From the IMG/VR virus record IMGVR_UViG_3300034158_000007, positions 70,616 to 134,615 of that record: 64,000 nucleotides of DNA. One strand, 5' to 3'. The stretch is from a virus. The notes under the pieces are model-generated. The model had not been told where the DNA came from. It saw only the letters and a program-made list of their open reading frames with translations, and searched no databases. The position numbers and the translations under genes were made by a program. Below, in pieces: positions 4,195 through 62,218 of this stretch (position 1 is its first letter; every line of letters starts with the position of its first letter).

Positions 4195-4229
4195 CATAAG
4201 CCATCCCCACAAGAGGGATGGCATTTATG
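4195..4229. terminator. CATA...TATG-family palindrome
   Basis: CATAAGCCATCCC-CACAAGA-GGGATGGCATTTATG downstream of the Kelch gene. Confidence 0.65.
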
Positions 4230-8304: not shown

Positions 8305-8841
8305 ATGCCCCAGCTCTTAGTTGTTCCTGAAGCTGTTTACGATCAGTTTAAAACTGACGGTGTTCTATTCAATCGCTTGTTGGACACCAACTATATAGCT
8401 AGTGTCAGTTCGGTTAACGACCTGGCGCAAATCGATATAGCTATGAACAAATTCCCCTTCACGTTCGATCCGAGTAGCGGTGTAAGCCTCGCTCCAAGTC
8501 CACGTGCAGGTATTGCTATCGCTGCGTCTACTGAGAACCTTGAACGGTTTAAGATGCAAGATATGCATAATGCTTTAGAGGAGCGCATTGAGACCATTGC
8601 ACTCCGTCACGCTAGTCAACTTCAAGTTGTTAGTGAATATTCGCTTTATCCTGTAGACGAAAATCTTTGGGTTGCGGTGCAGAAGAGTCTGCCTATCACC
8701 AATAGCGATCCTGAACGGTATGCTTTAGTTAGTAACCGTACGTTCTTCGATAGTATGATTAATGAGTTGCTGCGCACCTGCAAATTGAGTCAGGTAGCCC
8801 CAACGAACCTCTTCAGCTATTATCTTATGTCCAAGGTCTAG
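8305..8841 (+). CDS. Probable minor capsid protein (phiKZ gp119-like)
   Basis: 178 aa, immediately upstream of MCP; call rests on synteny. Confidence 0.55.
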   Translation: MPQLLVVPEAVYDQFKTDGVLFNRLLDTNYIASVSSVNDLAQIDIAMNKFPFTFDPSSGVSLAPSPRAGIAIAASTENLERFKMQDMHNALEERIETIALRHASQLQVVSEYSLYPVDENLWVAVQKSLPITNSDPERYALVSNRTFFDSMINELLRTCKLSQVAPTNLFSYYLMSKV

Positions 8842-8915
8842 TTCCGGTGAAAAATAGCCTGGACAAAAAGATACTCGTTTAAAACCAAAACCCCATCCTG
8901 CGTAGGAAAACTTAG

Positions 8916-11138
8916 ATGAAAAACTTGAAATCTGTATTGAAAGCTTCTGCTACCGATAAACCAGTCTTCTCCATGGAAGGCTTCGTTGCATCCCTGAAGC
9001 TGGAAAATGATCTGGCCGATGGCCTGTTCTCTGTAGCAACTGCCGGTCTGGCAAAGACCATTGGTCTGGAATCCTTCGGTGAAGGTGAAGACAAACACGC
9101 TGCTTCGTCTGTGTACAAGCAACTGACTGCCCTGGCTACCAAGCTTGGCTTCGAACACTACATCTCCGAGAACCCACGCATCGCTGAGAACCAGCTGACT
9201 GCCGCATTCCTCGGTACCGTAGCTGCTGCTAACCCAGACCAGTACATCAAAGCACTTCGCGGTGTTTCGAAACTGATGCCTTCGACTGAAAGCATTAAGT
9301 CCGTAGAACACAGCTTCAGTGGTCCAGCCGGTTCCGTACAGGTATTTGACGCTGAAGGCGCCAAGTCCATGGGTCTGGAAAACTACAACGAGAAATCGCA
9401 ACGTGACTTCCGTGTTGTAACCGTTGGTTATAACCTGGCTGCTTCCCGTCAGGACGAATTCTCCGAGCGGATCTACCCTACTACCGTTATCAACCCTATC
9501 GAGGGTGGTGTGGTACAGGTTCTGCCTTACATCGCCGTAATGAAAGACGTGCATCACGCTGTTAACGGTGCTCGCTGGAAGAACGACGAAGTGAACATGG
9601 TAGAAGCATACCGTGATCCGTCGATTCTCGACGACAACGCAACTGATCTGATTCCTGCAATCAGCCCAGACGGCGTTAACCTGCACTTCTTCGCTGACCC
9701 GGCTCTGATCCCTGCTGAGACCATCGTCAACGAACAAAACCTGTCGATTGAAACTGCGCCTCTGAAGCCTGGTATCAAGATCGACCTGATGGGTAACTCC
9801 AACGCTAACATGCTGATCTCGGCTGGTATGCTTGAAGTTTCCGACTCGATCGACCCTGCTGGTCGTTTGAAGGCTCTGTACGTTAAGTTCCAAGGTAAAG
9901 TTATCAAGTTCAAAGTTGACCGCATGCCACGTGCTGTGTTCCAACCTGACCTGATCGGCGACACCCGTGGCGCTCGTATCGACTTCTTCACCGATGACCT
10001 GAGCGTAAGCTCGATCTCCCGTACTATCGATGGTGTTCAAACTGCTGCGATGCAAGAGCTGGAATCCCGTGAGTGGGTAATGCGTGTAAGCGTTGACTTC
10101 TCCGGTAACATCTCGCTGTCCCGTGGTGACTCCCGCTTCAATCCAGGCTCTGCCGAAATTGCTGCGATCCTGAACTCCGACCGTCGTCCTGTTGACATCA
10201 CCACTGGTGCCGGTAAGACTCTGGTAGATAGCATCACCGATCTGGAAATCGTTGGTTTCGAACTGCATACTCGTTTCACCAACACTAACCGTCGTCAGCG
10301 CGGTCACCTGTTGCAAACACGTGCTCTGCAATTCCGTCACCCTATCCCAATGCACGCGCCAGTAACCCTGCCGCTGAGCACCATGGATGAAGAAGGTCCA
10401 GGCGAAGTTGTTAAAGCTCTGACTGTTAACACCAACATCCGTAACAGCAACAACGCTGTTAAGACCCTGCTGAACTATCTGGCACAGCTGAAGGAATTGA
10501 CTGGTAACGGCTTCAACCGTCCTACCATCAACGTATACGAGGGTGCTCTGGCCGCAGTAATGCGTCCTACCTACTACTACGATACCATGCACCTGCCAGA
10601 CATGATCGATACCCTGAAGTCGAAAGACCGTTGGGACGACGTGTGCAGCGCGATCCTGAACAAAGTTAAAGGTCGTCTGTTCCCTGCGTACCGTGACTCG
10701 AACATCGAGGCAACATTCCGTGTAATCTCGGGCAACCAAGATGAGCGTCCAATGTTCCTGTTCTGCTCGGACAAAGAGATCGCTAACTACCTGATGACTA
10801 AAGGCGACGACCGTACCCTGGGTGCATACCTGGAATACGACATCGTTTCCACTAACAACGAACTGTTCGACGGTAAGTTGGTAGTAGTTCCGACCCGTAA
10901 GACTCCAGCCGAAAACGACATCCTGTCCTTCGGTCAGTTCTTCTACGTGTCGACCATCATCGCCGACCTGCCGATCTCCCGTGGTGGTCATCAGATCTCC
11001 CGTGAAATCGCAGCCATCCCATTCAACCTGCACATCAACAACATTCCATTCGCACTGGAATTCGATGTAACAGGCTTCGAAGAAGTGATGGGTCACTCGA
11101 TGTGGAACAAGCCAGTTGTTGACGGTCTGAATGCCTGA
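8916..11138 (+). CDS. Major capsid protein (phiKZ gp120-like)
   Basis: 740 aa; strongest codon bias in the window; propeptide with SMEG, GLES and GLENY cleavage sites; LENYNEKSQRDFR..TV.YNL.ASRQDEF.E..YPT motif of phiKZ-like MCPs. Confidence 0.9.
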   Translation: MKNLKSVLKASATDKPVFSMEGFVASLKLENDLADGLFSVATAGLAKTIGLESFGEGEDKHAASSVYKQLTALATKLGFEHYISENPRIAENQLTAAFLGTVAAANPDQYIKALRGVSKLMPSTESIKSVEHSFSGPAGSVQVFDAEGAKSMGLENYNEKSQRDFRVVTVGYNLAASRQDEFSERIYPTTVINPIEGGVVQVLPYIAVMKDVHHAVNGARWKNDEVNMVEAYRDPSILDDNATDLIPAISPDGVNLHFFADPALIPAETIVNEQNLSIETAPLKPGIKIDLMGNSNANMLISAGMLEVSDSIDPAGRLKALYVKFQGKVIKFKVDRMPRAVFQPDLIGDTRGARIDFFTDDLSVSSISRTIDGVQTAAMQELESREWVMRVSVDFSGNISLSRGDSRFNPGSAEIAAILNSDRRPVDITTGAGKTLVDSITDLEIVGFELHTRFTNTNRRQRGHLLQTRALQFRHPIPMHAPVTLPLSTMDEEGPGEVVKALTVNTNIRNSNNAVKTLLNYLAQLKELTGNGFNRPTINVYEGALAAVMRPTYYYDTMHLPDMIDTLKSKDRWDDVCSAILNKVKGRLFPAYRDSNIEATFRVISGNQDERPMFLFCSDKEIANYLMTKGDDRTLGAYLEYDIVSTNNELFDGKLVVVPTRKTPAENDILSFGQFFYVSTIIADLPISRGGHQISREIAAIPFNLHINNIPFALEFDVTGFEEVMGHSMWNKPVVDGLNA

Positions 11139-11233
11139 GACACTAAGGGCGGACTCCGTTACTACGAAGACGGCACAACCGTCAGGCTAGAAGAAAGCGG
11201 GCTCCCCCGCCGACTAGAGCGGTGACACTAGGT

Positions 11234-11265
11234 CATATTGCCAGCACTTAGGTGCTGGCTTTATG
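11234..11265. terminator. CATA...TATG-family palindrome after MCP and its in-frame extension
   Basis: CATATTGCCAGCAC-TTAG-GTGCTGGCTTTATG. Confidence 0.75.
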
Positions 11266-18874: not shown

Positions 18875-19750
18875 TCAGTTATAGTGAAGGAGCAGATAAC
18901 CTGCCACGTTGTTAGATACGATACCCAATTCCAATACCACAACATTCAAGATGTCCGTGCGTGGAGAATAACGGGGTAACACTCGGCCATTGTAAACCAC
19001 CCGGATACGACCCTCGCCTTTATCGGCATCGAACGCAAGGTTCCAATCGACTAGGTCCTTACTGCACACCCATGGTGTACCAGTTATGTCTTGCACGATA
19101 GCTGCCAGCTTACGACCTGTAGGCCACACTGAGGCACGCGTTAATACTTTTAGGTACTCACGCTCACTGGTGAAGTCATAACCTGCTGTAACGTACTGTG
19201 CGGAGATCTTAGCCCCATCTGGGTTACCAAGTGGCCAGGTATTAGCCAAAGGGAACTCAAACTGACTAGATACCTCGGACAATGCACGGCGGGTAGTGTT
19301 GATCAAACGGAAATCAATTTTCCCTACGAATCGCAACGACTTGGGATTAGCAGTCAGCGTAAAGGTTTCGTTGTAGGTATTGTATTCAACATGAACGAAG
19401 TCATTCAGGGTAAATACGATCTCATTAAACTCACCGATAGCAGCCAGTACCTCAGCAGTATTAGTTGGAAGTGTAAAGCCTGGAAGATCCTTAACTCCAA
19501 ACGAACGGAAGAAAGTCTGTAGATCCAAACGGTCGTAGACATACTCCTTACGTTCGATCGGTGGGGCTGTGTTAAACTCATTCTCAACCTGATTAGGGAT
19601 AATCACCACTTGCGTGCTGGTCGTCCCTAGTGGTACAAACGATTCGAGTTTAGTGGAGTACGGCTGTAGCTCAGTACCGTACTGTTCATTGATACGTGCG
19701 ATAATCGCGTCCCAAGGGTCAGCCTTTAAATAGTCGCGGGTTAGAAACAT
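18875..19750 (-). CDS. Virion structural protein (gp127-like)
   Basis: Y.YDRLDL domain typical of phiKZ-like tail/baseplate proteins; synteny. Confidence 0.65.
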   Translation of the reverse strand: MFLTRDYLKADPWDAIIARINEQYGTELQPYSTKLESFVPLGTTSTQVVIIPNQVENEFNTAPPIERKEYVYDRLDLQTFFRSFGVKDLPGFTLPTNTAEVLAAIGEFNEIVFTLNDFVHVEYNTYNETFTLTANPKSLRFVGKIDFRLINTTRRALSEVSSQFEFPLANTWPLGNPDGAKISAQYVTAGYDFTSEREYLKVLTRASVWPTGRKLAAIVQDITGTPWVCSKDLVDWNLAFDADKGEGRIRVVYNGRVLPRYSPRTDILNVVVLELGIVSNNVAGYLLLHYN

Positions 19751-28686: not shown

Positions 28687-28763
28687 TTAACCGAACAGCG
28701 GAGGGAGTACATCGGGTCCACCCGTTGTCTCCTTCTGCTGTTATTTATTTCCTTGGAGTTAAA

Positions 28764-30146
28764 ATGTCCAACATCAAAGTGCGGTTGCAGTATGACCCAA
28801 CTGGACGTAACGCGGATAACCTAGTGGGTAGTGAGGCACATGACCTTAAAGCGGTTGCAGGTTTCCCCTACAAGATCATCACGCTTGATAACGGTGGGTT
28901 CTATACCCGCTCGCTACGCGTATACGATTCAGCTTACAACAAACTTTCCCCCGGTGTAGATTACATCTATACTTACCGTCATGCCGTACTGAGCCAAGAG
29001 CTTGGTCTCAACATCTGTAGTGCAATCGTTTTCCTCGATCCAACAAGGGTGGGTACAGTTTACTGCTCGGCTCAGATGGTCGGTGGCGATGCAGCATTCA
29101 GTTTGACCGTGATCACGGACTACGTCACTTGGTTCAATAGCCAGCCTGTTGGATATGTCCCACGTAACGATGACTTCAATGGTAATGAACCCCAGTGGAA
29201 GCCAGGTGAGTTGGATAAAGAACGTTGGCACCTTGATACATACCAGCCGTTCAACAACGAGATCTACGACATGGCCCGCTCTATCAATGGCGCCACTGGT
29301 CCATATGAGCAAGACTTCCGTGATCACGTTTTAGCCGACTATGCCAACTTCCTACTGTTGTTCAATGATCGGTTACAACGACACATCGACGATAAAGCTA
29401 ACCCACACGTTGACGTAAAGGACGATGTTGGTCTTGGCCTGGTGGAGAACTATACGGTGGCGTCTGAGCAGATTGCACGGGCAGGTCAGTCTAACACGAC
29501 TTACTTGACACCTGCATTGTCATGGGCGACCGTCGATGAGTTTGCCATCAAACCGATGAACAACCACATTAACCTAAGACCAGCTAACCCACACCGTACA
29601 ACGCCAACAACTATTGACTCACCGACAAAGGCGGTGGTGGACGCTAAAGCGAATACCAAATACCTTCGGAATGAACAAGTAGTGAATGCGGATTATTTCG
29701 CCAACAGTCGTAATCCAGACCCAGCTACTGAAGCCTATACGTACTACGATTACTACCAGTACGCTCGGTCAAAGATTGCGGCTTTGGAATTCTTAGCTGA
29801 AAGCGGTGGTGGCTACATCAGCCCTTACCGTATTGGTCGTGGTTCCCCTGCTGCTAACACGGCACTGAATGGCGATGGTCAGTGGGTTACATGGGATTCG
29901 ATTATCGTACAGCAGGCTCCACCACCTTCCCCGGTGGTTATGATCTGTGGTGGATTTGGTGACCGTACCGTAGGACATAACTTCGTTATCACCCAACCTT
30001 GGGCACGTACTGTACCCGTTGGCTCGGTGGCGTTCTATTATTTGGATGCGGTGTATTGGTGGGGTACCGGTAACGGGGCCTGGCAACTTGGTGGTCGGAC
30101 TACCTGTGGTTCATTCAAAACCGCTAGTGGCTGGATTATGATTTGA
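28764..30146 (+). CDS. Tail fibre/baseplate protein (gp133-like); start refined
   Basis: Paralogous N-terminal YDPTG....NL...E.H domain plus NPH repeats; RBS GGAG. Confidence 0.75.
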   Translation: MSNIKVRLQYDPTGRNADNLVGSEAHDLKAVAGFPYKIITLDNGGFYTRSLRVYDSAYNKLSPGVDYIYTYRHAVLSQELGLNICSAIVFLDPTRVGTVYCSAQMVGGDAAFSLTVITDYVTWFNSQPVGYVPRNDDFNGNEPQWKPGELDKERWHLDTYQPFNNEIYDMARSINGATGPYEQDFRDHVLADYANFLLLFNDRLQRHIDDKANPHVDVKDDVGLGLVENYTVASEQIARAGQSNTTYLTPALSWATVDEFAIKPMNNHINLRPANPHRTTPTTIDSPTKAVVDAKANTKYLRNEQVVNADYFANSRNPDPATEAYTYYDYYQYARSKIAALEFLAESGGGYISPYRIGRGSPAANTALNGDGQWVTWDSIIVQQAPPPSPVVMICGGFGDRTVGHNFVITQPWARTVPVGSVAFYYLDAVYWWGTGNGAWQLGGRTTCGSFKTASGWIMI

Positions 30147-35949: not shown

Positions 35950-36387
35950 ATGTTAACGCTACTAAAAGGTATTAGCACGAAAGTGTATGTGGGTATCATT
36001 TTGGTGTTACTCGCAACGAGTTGGTTCCTCTACAAGTCCTATACAAACGGGCTAGTAGAGCAGGGGGCATTGCAGTCATCGAATGTTACCCTGCAAAACA
36101 ACGTGGACTACGTTGAGAAATCAGCGAAGATAACGGACAAGGTCGTTAACGATTTTGTTACTGAATCTAGAGAGTCCAAACTAAAAAACGATGCTATACG
36201 CAAAGAGGCTCTGAATGAGTACATTAATAAGGTCGAGCCTAAGGTCTTGGTTAAGCCCATTGATCAAGCACCCAAAGTGCCTGATGATGCTGATCGTATT
36301 GATGGCCTTGCTAAGCGCATGCTCGAGAACTACTGTCGTGCCCGACCAGAAGACGCACGATGCAATCCCGTCAACCCTGAAAAGTAG
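35950..36387 (+). CDS. Inner-membrane spanin (i-spanin, Rz-like)
   Basis: N-terminal TM (VYVGIILVLLATSWFLY), periplasmic coiled coil, C-terminal Cys residues; overlapped by a lipoprotein gene. Confidence 0.7.
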   Translation: MLTLLKGISTKVYVGIILVLLATSWFLYKSYTNGLVEQGALQSSNVTLQNNVDYVEKSAKITDKVVNDFVTESRESKLKNDAIRKEALNEYINKVEPKVLVKPIDQAPKVPDDADRIDGLAKRMLENYCRARPEDARCNPVNPEK

Positions 36388-36610
36388 ATGCAACATCGCT
36401 CCGCCTCCAGCTACTGCCGAACTACTTAATGCTACTCAGCTAATGCCAGCGATCATCGATCCTTGGGAAGCTCGGTTCCTCCTTATGTACGATGCGTATA
36501 TGGTTCAGACGGGAAACCTCATCGACTGTGATCGACAGGTCGGTTATATCCGCGAATGGGATGACCAACACCTGGAGATGAAACATGAACCTCGAAAAAC
36601 TGCTAACTGA
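36260..36610 (+). CDS. Outer-membrane lipoprotein spanin (o-spanin, Rz1-like); start TTG 36260 or ATG 36284
   Basis: Lipobox LLSA-C, C..APPP, C-terminal Cys; begins inside the i-spanin gene in the +1 frame. Confidence 0.7.
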   Translation: MIKHPKCLMMLIVLMALLSACSRTTVVPDQKTHDAIPSTLKSRCNIAPPPATAELLNATQLMPAIIDPWEARFLLMYDAYMVQTGNLIDCDRQVGYIREWDDQHLEMKHEPRKTAN

Positions 36611-36986
36611 TCAAGGTAGTGATCCTCTATCTGACAAATTGAATGGACCCTCGTTGAGGGCTTTCATCAATGCCAACCTCAAAAGGGTTGGTGTAGAGGC
36701 AGTGAATGCGACTACACCCTGTGACGTAATACTGGAACGGATCTACTCGTTGGAAGATTCAGACGTTCAGAAGAAGTTGCTTGAAAGACAAGTAACCGAA
36801 CTGAACAGTGACACTAACTATAAAAGGCTCAGCATGTACGGCTCGCTTATCCTAGCGGCCATTGTCATTGTGCTTGGACTAGATAGTGTAACAGGTGGTA
36901 ACCTAAGTCCTGAGGCTATTGACGCTCTTAAGACTATCGGGTCGGGGATCTTGCAAATGATCTCTGGTAGTTTCACTACGGCATAA
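36585..36986 (+). CDS. Membrane protein, holin candidate
   Basis: C-terminal hydrophobic helices (MYGSLILAAIVIVLGL; IGSGILQMISG); sits between the spanins and the endolysin. Confidence 0.45.
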   Translation: MNLEKLLTDQGSDPLSDKLNGPSLRAFINANLKRVGVEAVNATTPCDVILERIYSLEDSDVQKKLLERQVTELNSDTNYKRLSMYGSLILAAIVIVLGLDSVTGGNLSPEAIDALKTIGSGILQMISGSFTTA

Positions 36987-36991
36987 AACAA

Positions 36992-37029
36992 CATATTAGC
37001 CTCCCCTTTATAGGGGAGGTTTTATTATG
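36992..37029. terminator. CATA...TATG-family palindrome
   Basis: CATATTAGCCTCCCCT-TTAT-AGGGGAGGTTTTATTATG; late TATGTAG follows at 37031. Confidence 0.7.
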
Positions 37030-37075
37030 CTATGTAGTTCAAGTAGTTTTTTACACTGTTATAAGAGGGTTTCAC

Positions 37076-37627
37076 ATGAGTGATCGTTTTCCCTACAACT
37101 TGCCTTCGCGAGAAGCACTTGTAGAACTGGTTCGGCGATCTACCAATCGACCTGACTTGAAGGATGAATATGTAACCTTCGAGGACCTGTTCTTTTCACC
37201 AACCATAGTAGAACCGGGTCGCACGTCGATTGAAATGATTGACCGCGTGACCAGTCAGAAAGAATGGTTTGAATTCAGACGACTGGAGCTGAGTAACAAT
37301 CGTTGCCTCGGTCCATTGGTCAGTATTAAGATTATGGGTGATCCTACCCCAGCTAACATCGCAGCTGAGATTAACCGCTCCCGTAAAATGAAGTTCGGTC
37401 CTAGTGACGTATCTTTCTCTGACGAACTGATCCCAGTAATGGGTACAACCTTCGAGTACATCATGCCTGCATTGTCAGGTAGTTATGTTTTCTACGGTAG
37501 CACTAAGGTACAGGTCGAGGTTCTTCCAATCTCACAATGGACACGTTATCTCGAGAACGGCGCTATCCGTTATACGCAAGAAGGCGTTGCCCGTGAACTC
37601 GAGCACCGCATTAACCGCTGGAGTTGA
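37076..37627 (+). CDS. Virion structural protein (gp143-like) with a C-terminal RYLENG...R...G..R.LE peptide
   Basis: F.FRRLEL domain related to the RLDL family; RBS GAGGG; synteny with the endolysin. Confidence 0.7.
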   Translation: MSDRFPYNLPSREALVELVRRSTNRPDLKDEYVTFEDLFFSPTIVEPGRTSIEMIDRVTSQKEWFEFRRLELSNNRCLGPLVSIKIMGDPTPANIAAEINRSRKMKFGPSDVSFSDELIPVMGTTFEYIMPALSGSYVFYGSTKVQVEVLPISQWTRYLENGAIRYTQEGVARELEHRINRWS

Positions 37628-37629
37628 TC

Positions 37630-38424
37630 ATGGCTTTATTAAAGAATGGTTCCCGTGGGGAACAAGTAGCAGCTTTACAACGTCAACTTAAGAGTCTCGG
37701 CTATACTCTTAAGGACGATGGTGTTTTTGGAGACACCACGGAACGTTATGTAAAGGAAGTCCAACGCCGGTTCAAATTGACCGATGACGGAGTGGTCGGA
37801 GATAAAACTTGGGCGGTACTGAATACCCCTAACTCCACCCTGAAGACATTGACCGAAGCGGACTACGCTTGGGCAGCAGATTTCCTTGCTGACGATGTGG
37901 CATCTGTTAAAGCAGTCCGTGAAGTAGAGGCACCCCAAGGTGGTTTCTTGCCTGACGGGCGAGTTACTATTCTTTATGAACGTCACGTGATGTATCGTCA
38001 ACTGTTCGCTAACGGCTTTGACCCCGATAAGTACGCTGCCAGTAATCCAGATATAGTTAATAAGAAGACTGGTGGATACCTCGGCAAAGCTGCTGAATAT
38101 AAACGTTTGGCTGCCGCCGAACTGATTGATCAGAAGTCTGCACTGGAATCCTGTTCTTGGGGTGCTTACCAGATCATGGGGTATCACTGGAAAATCTTGG
38201 GGTTCGATAGCGTGTATAGCTTCGTTGCCAAGATGAAAGAATCTGAACGTGGTCAACTGGAATGTTTCGTACGCTTCATTAAATCACAACCTGCGCTACT
38301 GAAAGCAATCCGTAGTGATGATTGGGTAACCTTCGCACGCTACTACAATGGGTCGAATTACCGGGCAAACAAGTACGACGATAAACTCCAAGCCGCTTTT
38401 ATTAAATATGGCGGATTGAAATAA
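37630..38424 (+). CDS. Modular endolysin: PG_binding_1 plus DUF3380-type N-acetylmuramidase
   Basis: L..GS.G..V..LQ..L...GY, DG.FG..T, DG.VG..T repeats; catalytic VE...GF, ILYERH, SWG..QIMG.HW, FA..YNG..Y..N.YD.KL. Confidence 0.9.
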   Translation: MALLKNGSRGEQVAALQRQLKSLGYTLKDDGVFGDTTERYVKEVQRRFKLTDDGVVGDKTWAVLNTPNSTLKTLTEADYAWAADFLADDVASVKAVREVEAPQGGFLPDGRVTILYERHVMYRQLFANGFDPDKYAASNPDIVNKKTGGYLGKAAEYKRLAAAELIDQKSALESCSWGAYQIMGYHWKILGFDSVYSFVAKMKESERGQLECFVRFIKSQPALLKAIRSDDWVTFARYYNGSNYRANKYDDKLQAAFIKYGGLK

Positions 38425-58539: not shown

Positions 58540-61047
58540 ATGCAGATTAAATACCTTCGCCTTAAACGCTTTCGTCGTTTGATGCGATCCAATATTCAAG
58601 AGTTTGAGTGGACCCCAACTAAGCAACTGATGATCATGATCGGTTCGAATGGTTCAGGTAAGTCTTCCATTATGGAAGAACTGTCACCACTGCCAACTCC
58701 GTCTAAAGCTGCTCGCGGCGCAGACAACTTTTCACCGGGTGGCCAGAAAGAATTTCACTGCTACCATAACGGTAGTCTTTATGTTCTGTTGTCCGAATAC
58801 GGTCACGGTACAGGTAAGCATTCATTTATCCGTGATGACGAAGAACTCAACTCTGGTGGCACCTTTAAGATTCAAGAAGACCTGTGTCTTCAAGAGTTCG
58901 GTCTGACCCGTGAGTTCCATGAGATCTGTACCGGGCGAATGAAGTTCACCCAGATGACCACAGCTAAGCGTCGTGAGATTCTGACTAAGATGTCTGTGGT
59001 CGATCTATCACATGCCTTCCATGTGTTCAACATCCTTAAGACTGAATCCCGGTCACAAAAGGGTACAGTCGATACGATCACTAAGCGTCTCGTTAACGAG
59101 AACCATGACATCCCGTCTGATAACGAATTGGGTATCATGAAGCGTGAGAACAACCAACTGTCCGAAAGACTGAACGGTTTGTTCTTGGCTCGACAAGCTA
59201 ACCAACAGCCTGGCTTCCGTGATGAGGTTGAGGCTAGTAGTATATTGGCGGGTCTAGTTGAACGTGCTAAGGCTGTGCTCCACAGTTACCCAACACTCCC
59301 TGAACGTCTCAAGGCTCGTGATGAAGCTGGGTTCATGGAAGAGAAGCGTGTAGTGCAAGAGCAGTGCGCTGCAATTCAAGCTGTGATTAACCGCATGGCT
59401 GAAGAACTGGAATCCCTCCGTGGTGCTAACGTAGCTGACATGGAAGTATCCCCAGAACAACTGACCAATCTAGAGAGCGAGATTACAGAAACGAATGCTT
59501 TAGTGGATCGTCTGTTTAAAGACCTTGAAGCTAACCCTATTAAGTTTCCACTCGTCAACCTAGATTTGTCAAACAACCCAGATCAACGTTTGTCCAGTAT
59601 GTTCCAACGTTGGTATGAAATCACTAACGCCTTCCCGGATAACTCCGAGGGATACTTTTCTAATGCAAAGATTGAATCGGTACGCGAGAGCTTGTCTGTT
59701 TTATTGGGTCGTCGTCGGGAACTTGATCGTGCAGAACAGACGGCAGCGCAAAGGCTTTCTCGCTTAAAAGCGTGTGACACTGTAGTCTGTCCTAAATGCG
59801 AACATGACTTTAAACCGGGGGTTGATGAAACCGAAGGTGAGAAGCTTGAGACCTACCTTGCTCAAGTTCGTGAAGCTATGGGTGAAACAGATCTATTGAT
59901 CCGTCGGGAAGAGGAATACATCGAGGCTGCTAAGGAGTACCGTGGACACGTCCATGCCTTTACGCAGATGACACGTGAGTACTCAGACTTCACCCCGATA
60001 TGGGATTACGTTACAGAGCATCAGTTGATGTTCCGTACGCCGTCTGCGATCAAGATGGATCTGACTCACTGGTTTGCTAAGATGAAACAGTACGTCCTGT
60101 TACATCAATACCAAGCTGATGCAGAACGTTTGGTTAAGCGTCTGGCTAACCTGAACGAGATTGACCGTGATGCTGTAGCCTACAACCGTAACCGTTGTTC
60201 GCTGCTGGAGCATGAAGTTCAGGCTAAGTACTATGAACAAACCACGATGACTGAGTACCTACAGCAGATCACCCGTGGAGAGGTCGACATCCGCCGTCAG
60301 AACAACGAAATCAACTCAATCATCCAAGGGTACCAATCATGGCGTGAACGCGCTATGAAGCACACAGAGTGGCTCCTAGACAAAGCCTATGAAGCTGAGA
60401 TCAATGACATTCAAGTGAAGTTGGCTCAGGGTACACATTCGTTGGCAGTGTTGACTCAACGTGAAATGACGTTGCGTGTATTGGAAGGTGAGGTTGAGAA
60501 TGCTCGTGAAGTACAAGGTGACTTGAACCTACTCATTAAAGCACTGTCTCCTAACGGTGGTTTGCTCGGTAAGTACTTGATGGGTTTCATGCAGGGTGTA
60601 ACCACTCTCGTGAATGCGTACATCTCTGAGATCTGGACTTACAAGATGGAAGTATTGCCATCTAAGGTTGAGAAGGATGAGTTGGACTATAACTTCCCAT
60701 TGAGTATTTCTGATGGTGCGGTGGTAGCTCCTGATATCTCACGCGGTAGTGACTCACAGTTGGAGATGGTAGACTTTAGTTTCATGCAAGCAATGCGTAA
60801 GTTCCTTCACTTGGATCACATGCCTTTGTTCTTGGATGAATTCGGTCGTACGTTTGACGAACAGCATCGGGATAACCTGATTCCTTTCATCATGCGTCTA
60901 ATCGAGAACGGGGTTCACCAGCAAATCTTTTACATCAGTCACTACGTCTCTACCCACGGTGCTTTCAACCAAGCAGAGTTCATGGTGCTTGATCCAACTA
61001 ACGTGACAGTACCTGAACACTTTAATAAGAACGTTCAGATCAAGTGA
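58540..61047 (+). CDS. sbcC: SbcC/Rad50-like SMC ATPase (gp165-like)
   Basis: Walker A GSNGSGKS, coiled coils, zinc hook CPKC, signature ISRGSDSQ, Walker B LFLDE, H-loop ISH. Confidence 0.92.
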   Translation: MQIKYLRLKRFRRLMRSNIQEFEWTPTKQLMIMIGSNGSGKSSIMEELSPLPTPSKAARGADNFSPGGQKEFHCYHNGSLYVLLSEYGHGTGKHSFIRDDEELNSGGTFKIQEDLCLQEFGLTREFHEICTGRMKFTQMTTAKRREILTKMSVVDLSHAFHVFNILKTESRSQKGTVDTITKRLVNENHDIPSDNELGIMKRENNQLSERLNGLFLARQANQQPGFRDEVEASSILAGLVERAKAVLHSYPTLPERLKARDEAGFMEEKRVVQEQCAAIQAVINRMAEELESLRGANVADMEVSPEQLTNLESEITETNALVDRLFKDLEANPIKFPLVNLDLSNNPDQRLSSMFQRWYEITNAFPDNSEGYFSNAKIESVRESLSVLLGRRRELDRAEQTAAQRLSRLKACDTVVCPKCEHDFKPGVDETEGEKLETYLAQVREAMGETDLLIRREEEYIEAAKEYRGHVHAFTQMTREYSDFTPIWDYVTEHQLMFRTPSAIKMDLTHWFAKMKQYVLLHQYQADAERLVKRLANLNEIDRDAVAYNRNRCSLLEHEVQAKYYEQTTMTEYLQQITRGEVDIRRQNNEINSIIQGYQSWRERAMKHTEWLLDKAYEAEINDIQVKLAQGTHSLAVLTQREMTLRVLEGEVENAREVQGDLNLLIKALSPNGGLLGKYLMGFMQGVTTLVNAYISEIWTYKMEVLPSKVEKDELDYNFPLSISDGAVVAPDISRGSDSQLEMVDFSFMQAMRKFLHLDHMPLFLDEFGRTFDEQHRDNLIPFIMRLIENGVHQQIFYISHYVSTHGAFNQAEFMVLDPTNVTVPEHFNKNVQIK

Positions 61048-62188: not shown

Positions 62189-62218
62189 CATAAAGCCAGC
62201 CTCAAGGGCTGGCCTATG
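62189..62218. repeat. Family palindrome; right member of the inverted pair
   Basis: CATAAAGCCAGCC-TCAAG-GGCTGGCCTATG between convergent genes. Confidence 0.8.

Follow-up and report, generated by a model that had tools for sequence, protein, structure and literature searches.

The capsid gene of Qbeta (Qubevirus) ends in a leaky UGA, and each virion consequently includes a few subunits of a readthrough protein, A1, whose added C-terminal portion has a separate role. Extended capsid isoforms are also mentioned for the Listeria phages A118, PSA and A500 (PMC5009743), and stem-loops associated with readthrough have been described in alphaviruses and coltiviruses (Firth et al. 2011, cited in PMC5009743). 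The locus considered here belongs to a giant, tailed, phiKZ-like Pseudomonas phage and lies in a stretch of 64,000 nucleotides (nt), hereafter the window, that corresponds to positions 70,616 to 134,615 of IMG/VR virus record IMGVR_UViG_3300034158_000007, a viral contig of 134.6 kb; all positions are those of the window unless stated otherwise. Within it the gene for a major capsid protein (MCP) of the phiKZ gp120 family ends in a UGA that is followed by a further 28 codons in the same frame. Comparison with related phages suggests that this UGA is probably subject to programmed readthrough, which would give rise to a minor capsid isoform carrying a tag of RxxEDG-type repeats. The elements of the capsid locus, including its open reading frame (ORF) and the match of the extension to a hidden Markov model (HMM), are as follows.

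8916–11135, plus strand: sense codons of the MCP ORF, phiKZ gp120 family (PF25620 PhiKZ_MCP, E 1.6e-218)
11136–11138, plus strand: stop codon of the MCP (UGA), proposed to be leaky and open to readthrough (TGA in 23 of 23 clade sequences and in Noxifer)
11139–11222, plus strand: 28-codon in-frame extension encoding the RxxEDG-repeat tag (open frame, omega 0.39, match to the gp143-like tail HMM)
11147–11208, plus strand: predicted extended RNA hairpin that starts 8 nt past the UGA (single-sequence folds and pairing over 22 sequences)
11223–11231, plus strand: second stop, TGA at 11223–25, with a back-up in-frame TAG at 11229–31, one codon on (translation of 11076–11240)
11240–11265, plus strand: terminator-like hairpin (8-bp stem, 4-nt loop) with TTTATG, a member of the window's hairpin family (by position)

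The original prediction, made from the letters of this DNA, held that the MCP stop is followed by an in-frame extension of 28 codons that ends at a second TGA and has no usable start of its own. Translation of 11076–11240 bears this out, since the extension contains no in-frame ATG, GTG or TTG, and no other ORF of at least 40 amino acids lies over it in the window. The contrast in codon usage that had been remarked upon is equally real. Codons that are rare in the MCP, taken as those below 10% of their synonymous family, occupy 12 of the 28 positions in the extension versus 33 of 740 (4.5%) within the MCP itself, and seven of the 28 positions are filled by six kinds of codon that the MCP never uses (GGA, AGG, GGG, CCC, CGA and, twice, CTA). 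Such a sharp drop in codon quality past the TGA fits the expectation for a rarely translated stretch, and it rules out a simple mis-called sense codon. The TGA is also intact, and without an indel, in contigs from three other studies; sequencing or assembly error as the origin of the TGA is excluded by these three assemblies together with the conservation of the codon in relatives.

The placement of the terminator-like hairpin points in the same direction. It had been noted that the family hairpin appears only after the second stop, and it does indeed lie 101 nt past the first stop and 14 nt past the second. Six other copies of the hairpin with TTTATG are found 9–20 nt past the stop of a long ORF, and the 14-nt spacing from the second stop is thus the usual one for this terminator family in the window. 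The GC-rich family as a whole has ten copies, at 4199, 6605, 11240, 24746, 43148, 57369 and 61285 on the plus strand and at 62213, 18418 and 1609 on the minus strand. Long ORFs ahead of the copies end in TAA 9–20 nt upstream, with the capsid gene as the exception.

How widely is this arrangement shared? The 3' ends of MCP genes were gathered from 10 GenBank phages and 20 IMG/VR contigs, giving 23 distinct sequences of the phiKZ clade that span at least six genera. All 23 have the TGA followed by an open in-frame extension of 26–30 codons with the same peptide pattern. Noxifer (62% identity) likewise has the TGA and a 28-codon extension with the same peptide pattern, encoded by unrelated nucleotides and with different Arg codons, which brings TGA to 24 of the 24 distinct sequences that have the extension. 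The extension is absent from eight more distant MCP genes, which end in TAA; these are three IMG/VR relatives (~68% MCP identity), RAY, SPFM17, RSF1, KpLz-2_45 and Eowyn. Where the extension is present the first stop is invariant, whereas the second varies among relatives (TAA, TGA or TAG), and as a measure of how often this codon is otherwise used, TGA ends only 31 of 130 rough ORF calls in the contig (24%). Immediately after the UGA the 23 clade sequences have A or G and Noxifer has C, and T occurs in none. Across the extension the MCP frame is free of stops in 23 of 23 sequences, whereas the other two frames are interrupted in 22 and 19 of them. Indels within the motif are of whole codons without exception among the 23, and the layout has been kept over at least seven deep lineages whose intergenic flanks no longer align. 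A further in-frame stop within two codons of the extension's own stop is seen in about 10 of the 23 relatives (TGA-CAC-TAG in the window), compared with ~9% by chance, the lineages not being independent; it looks as though the phages were making sure that ribosomes stop once the tag is complete.

Capsid genes of two distant chimalliviruses also have a TGA followed by an open in-frame extension, of different sequence. In Serratia phage PCH45 this runs for 48 codons (1337–1483 of the examined stretch) and terminates in an acidic ...IELE-like motif, and in Serratia phage 2050HW it runs for 16 codons (1331–1381 of the examined stretch). Readthrough may extend beyond the phiKZ clade, the tag being a different one there. 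A profile of the MCP extensions finds no match in PCH45, 2050HW or RAY, and the PCH45 and Noxifer extensions, used as single-sequence queries against their own genomes, return only themselves.

Conservation behind the MCP stop, which the original prediction had proposed to test in relatives, also has the character expected of protein. With the Goldman–Yang (GY) codon model applied to the 23 sequences in the MCP frame, omega is 0.39, with a log-likelihood of -1352.3 versus -1373.8 at omega = 1 (2dlnL 42.9), whereas reading that alignment in frames +1 and +2, after masking of stops, yields 0.99 and 2.03. The purifying selection on residues is thus specific to the capsid frame. The tree-based model was used instead of the all-pairs pN/pS, as the latter (0.63) is saturated and discriminates poorly. 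At the invariant Gly columns all four codons are in use, and one invariant Arg column is encoded by five codons drawn from both the AGR and CGN families.

What the extension encodes is recognisable from elsewhere in the phage, where the same motif forms the tail of a translated protein. Two further features of the window are relevant.

37076–37627, plus strand: gp143-like virion protein with a DUF7941 N-domain and a C-terminal tail carrying the RxxEDG-repeat motif at 37541–37606 (phrog_2935)
18875–19750, minus strand: full-length gp127-like member of DUF7941 and candidate partner of the tag (PF25613, E 9.6e-24)

The gp143-like ORF belongs to phrog_2935, a family of virion structural proteins, and since it adjoins the endolysin it occupies the gp143 position of the phiKZ lysis/virion cluster. 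The tail motif is present in all ~60 gp143-like homologues. When an HMM built from 60 of these tails was searched against the 4710 six-frame stop-to-stop segments of the contig, the gp143-like protein came first and the MCP extension second (E 1e-3), and the same HMM recognises the Noxifer extension with an E value of 3.5e-5. A third match in the contig (2799–2891, minus strand, E 0.025) was rejected as noise because it lies out of frame across a gene junction. In the reverse direction, the MCP-extension profile run over the six frames of five complete relatives picks out, besides the extensions, only the tails of ORFs of 180–188 amino acids, in four of the five, and in Noxifer, which was outside the profile, it finds only the tail of a 188-amino-acid ORF and the segment after the MCP TGA. 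These tail profile searches establish that the likeness to the gp143-like C-terminus, on which the original prediction had drawn, is real. MCP and gp143-like tails are no more alike within a phage than between phages, and the likeness looks like the outcome of shared constraint rather than of recent gene conversion.

An AlphaFold2 (AF2) model of the gp143-like protein, with a predicted local distance difference test (pLDDT) value of 84, has a globular domain at about residues 10–150 and a tail with periodic beta bridges. Fold comparison pairs this domain with one chain of 9xqd, a structure of the phiKZ baseplate periphery (E 1.5e-6). Membership of DUF7941 is assigned by fold for the gp143-like protein and by Pfam for its homologues; a profile-profile comparison with the gp127-like DUF7941 protein gives no match (probability 0.3%), and the relation between the two is visible only through fold and through the Pfam matches of homologues. 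The gp127-like protein has no tag motif of its own. Prediction of a complex between the gp143-like N-domain (1–150) and the extension scored 0.01, which with a partner of fewer than 30 residues is neutral either way. In phiKZ, gp126, gp127 and gp143 have been placed in DUF7941 by a 2026 preprint on Goslar (10.64898/2026.04.21.720040). The gp143-like ORF of the window stands within a block at 36215–38424 where small ORFs are followed by the gp143-like ORF and then by an endolysin with PG_binding_1 and muramidase domains, an order that agrees with the gp141–144 lysis cassette of phiKZ (PMC12894885).

The nucleotides of the extension carry information at the level of RNA as well. The two small stems pointed out by the original prediction, GACGG/CCGTC (11169–73/11179–83) and GCGGG/CCCGC (11197–201/11206–10), are found where it placed them and are parts of the larger predicted hairpin that starts 8 nt past the UGA, the first of them forming its inner stem. 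Single-sequence folds of this hairpin give z-scores of -4.95 for phiKZ and -0.5 for the window, and it is predicted in nearly all relatives examined. Over 22 sequences, 72.8% of the pairing cells are paired versus 38–51% in slid controls, and the covariation score is 0.207 versus 0.075–0.145 in those controls, with few events; RNAalifold retains seven pairs, representing the core only. In another assembly the changes C11180T and C11183T are synonymous and preserve G-U pairs. In Noxifer the fold differs and the spacer is 4 nt, and the copy of the motif in the window's gp143-like gene is without the outer stem.

Could the locus then be an untranslated structured RNA, a 3'-untranslated element of the abundant capsid mRNA that acts as a stabiliser, a processing site or a protein-binding hairpin, and whose protein-like look is a by-product of stem conservation? 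The near-universal hairpin, its excess of paired cells with some covariation, the G-U pairing retained by the two variants and third positions that are fixed where the amino acid varies would all sit well with such an element. It would, however, need neither an open frame nor whole-codon indels, and neither a fixed TGA nor a second stop just ahead of the terminator, and it would not confine purifying selection to the MCP frame. Noxifer, moreover, retains the peptide despite unrelated nucleotides, different Arg codons and a different fold, and over 60 gp143-like proteins carry this peptide as a tail that is genuinely translated, the window's own copy being encoded without the outer stem; a purely structural RNA is, on these grounds, unlikely. 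That the 28 codons are translated separately, into a micro-peptide whose synthesis begins past the MCP stop through reinitiation or at a non-canonical start, would account for selection on the peptide, and small ORFs are indeed annotated here in Viktualia and HPP-Temi. This is nevertheless very improbable, given that there is no in-frame ATG, GTG or TTG in the window and none conserved in relatives, that no conserved motif resembling a ribosome-binding site precedes the extension, and that the annotated small ORFs use another frame. The ORFs in question, Viktualia CDS0407 (1920–2018) and HPP-Temi CDS0286 (992–1135), both in coordinates of the examined stretches, lie over the MCP stop and are called hypothetical; as their frame is closed in most relatives, they are probably spurious and mask the in-frame extension.

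The poor codon usage past the TGA might also be read as decay, the 28 codons being without function, either what is left of an earlier C-terminus after a nonsense mutation or a misplaced copy of the gp143-like 3' end, in which case the likeness to the gp143-like tail could stem from an old duplication. Persistence of the layout over the deep lineages whose flanks are unalignable, an omega significantly below 1 and a first stop that stays constant while the second changes freely make this an even less probable account. Most improbable of all is insertion of selenocysteine at the UGA, with the downstream hairpin serving as a bacterial selenocysteine insertion sequence (SECIS). The locus does offer a UGA and then a hairpin with an apical loop some 30–40 nt downstream, a distance that loosely fits bacterial SECIS geometry, but the apical loop sequences vary, the Noxifer fold differs, no homologue has Cys at the UGA position, MCPs that lack the extension end in TAA, and a redox residue at the C-terminus of a capsid protein would be without rationale. 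Two other forms of recoding were considered and rejected. A programmed frameshift of the T7 10B type does not apply because the extension is in the zero frame and the other frames are interrupted in 22 and 19 of the 23 sequences, and stop-codon reassignment with a phage suppressor tRNA is discounted because neither the contig nor any of five complete relatives encodes a tRNA with anticodon UCA.

Programmed readthrough, as the original prediction proposed, was favoured by each comparative test that might have told against it, and draws its support from the conserved TGA and frame, the in-frame indels, selection on the residues, the reciprocal profile matches, the place of the terminator and the lack of a start codon. 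A number of considerations nonetheless weigh against it. The support comes from sequence comparison, and the omega value, 0.39, is a moderate one. At several sites the third codon position is fixed although the amino acid varies, and a Leu near the end of the extension is nearly always encoded by CUA or UUA; a role at the RNA level therefore contributes to the conservation and could, in principle, be its main constraint. The covariation of the hairpin is itself modest, with few events, and Noxifer folds differently. Published models of the phiKZ capsid finish at the annotated C-terminus. Finally, a 2026 paper presents phiKZ gp143 as a holin regulator that resides in the cytoplasm and is not essential (PMC12894885), which makes any partner proposed for the gp143-like tail a tentative one. 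Taken together, the pattern is read as that of two overlapping constraints, on protein and on RNA, of which the protein constraint is the better supported.

In the mechanism proposed for programmed readthrough, most ribosomes would stop at the MCP UGA and a minority would read through it. A suppressor tRNA with anticodon UCA was found neither in the contig nor in 201phi2-1, KTN4 (a phiKZ strain), PhiPA3, Phabio or Psa21, and decoding would therefore fall to a host near-cognate tRNA, as in Qbeta, most likely tRNA-Trp. Psa21 has a tRNA-Trp (CCA) of its own, a near-cognate reader of UGA (1498–1573 of the examined stretch), which is absent from the other four relatives checked. Ribosomes that read through would add 28 residues and end at 11223–25, generating a low-abundance capsid isoform with two to three RxxEDG-type repeats of eight residues at its C-terminus, the last of which runs out in a conserved R-x-L-E, and the predicted hairpin 8 nt past the UGA may raise the rate at which they do so. 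With 1,620 MCP chains in the phiKZ capsid, each percent of readthrough would correspond to about 16 tagged subunits. In the phiKZ structure the C-terminal arm of the MCP (728–747) is ordered to the last residue and, in pentamers, touches the outer decoration protein gp244 (PMC11297242), so that an extension would most likely point outward and the tag would be displayed outside the shell.

What might such a tag be for? The hypothesis put forward is that tagging allows a few capsid subunits to bind the same partner as the gp143-like tail, for which a DUF7941 N-domain is the most plausible candidate. DUF7941 proteins are reported to form filaments, visible by negative stain, with AlphaFold models in which a linker docks head-to-tail on the next N-domain (10.64898/2026.04.21.720040). 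A more speculative possibility, which we hold to be doubtful, is that the tag lets a few dozen subunits, out of ~1,600 in the capsid, imitate the gp143-like tail. Heads might then nucleate DUF7941 filaments on their surface, or they might vie with gp143 for a partner that both can bind. Seeding of filaments on the head would, if true, provide a second cloud of host-finding fibres, and competition with gp143 would link fibre assembly, or the timing of lysis, to how many capsids had been assembled.

With regard to the surroundings of the locus, the MCP ORF with its stop spans 8916–11138, has PF25620 as its only Pfam match and encodes a protein with 82–93% identity to gp200 of 201phi2-1. The nearest named relatives at the locus are the Pseudomonas phages 201phi2-1 and Viktualia, at ~82% DNA identity, and directly upstream of the MCP is the gene for a gp119-like vertex protein. 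Nearly the whole of the capsid gene is spanned by an open frame of 752 codons on the minus strand (8838–11096), which took the place of the MCP in a rough gene call and is most likely a by-product of the strong codon bias of the MCP. Two further long ORFs of the window (28725–30146 and 58540–61047) end in TGA with the frame open for at least 50 codons beyond, and here the continuation probably represents an adjacent gene in the same frame, with an in-frame Met a few codons in.

Among nucleus-forming jumbo phages, phiKZ and its relatives serve as the models, and they are also candidates for use in therapy. Near-atomic structures of their capsids are available and mass spectrometry has repeatedly been applied to their virions; even so, the isoform would have escaped notice, since no protein database contains it and it is too rare and too flexible to show in averaged maps. 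Full-text searches of a limited literature collection turned up nothing on readthrough at phiKZ gp120 or at the capsid gene of a tailed phage, readthrough is unmentioned in two phiKZ structure papers, and the supposition that it had not been described for phiKZ-like phages thus held within these searches. If confirmed, this would be, within that collection, the first reported case of programmed stop-codon readthrough at the capsid of a tailed double-stranded (ds) DNA phage. Confirmation would also add a class of recoding to the annotation of bacterial viruses, point to a partner for the unexplained DUF7941/gp143 tail and reveal a natural site for low-copy display on the head of a jumbo phage.

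Among known systems, the gag-pol pseudoknot of murine leukaemia virus (MuLV) and the extended stem-loops of alphaviruses and coltiviruses combine a stop codon, a short spacer and a stable structure about 8 nt downstream, to which the stem predicted 8 nt past the UGA in the phiKZ clade would correspond. Those structures, however, act on eukaryotic ribosomes and are tested stimulators, whereas the one described here is predicted, shows modest covariation and is not kept in Noxifer. For the tag itself the closest counterpart is the DUF7941 family of chimalliviruses (PF25613; Goslar gp22 and gp23, and phiKZ gp126, gp127 and gp143), since the tag has the same motif as the tail of the gp143-like protein, a short member of that family; the MCP is without the DUF7941 N-domain and shares the tail motif alone, the tail being put forward here as a docking element by hypothesis. 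Gene 10A/10B of T7 and the capsid genes of the Listeria phages A118, PSA and A500 are similar in that tailed dsDNA phages make a minor, longer MCP through recoding at the 3' end of the gene, but they do so by a change of frame at a slippery site, and the extension here continues in the zero frame behind a stop codon. With Qbeta the likeness extends to an abundant capsid gene that ends in UGA, an extension expected on a low share of subunits and the lack of a phage suppressor tRNA. The differences are that Qbeta is a small single-stranded RNA phage whose 196-residue extension is known to be essential from protein chemistry and genetics, whereas here a tailed dsDNA phage of ~300 kb has an extension of 26–30 residues that copies the tail of another virion protein and is known from sequence alone. 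Readthrough at this locus is well supported by the comparison of relatives as a probable event, and it would be a form of recoding already known in kind, that of the A1 type in Qbeta, and new at this gene.

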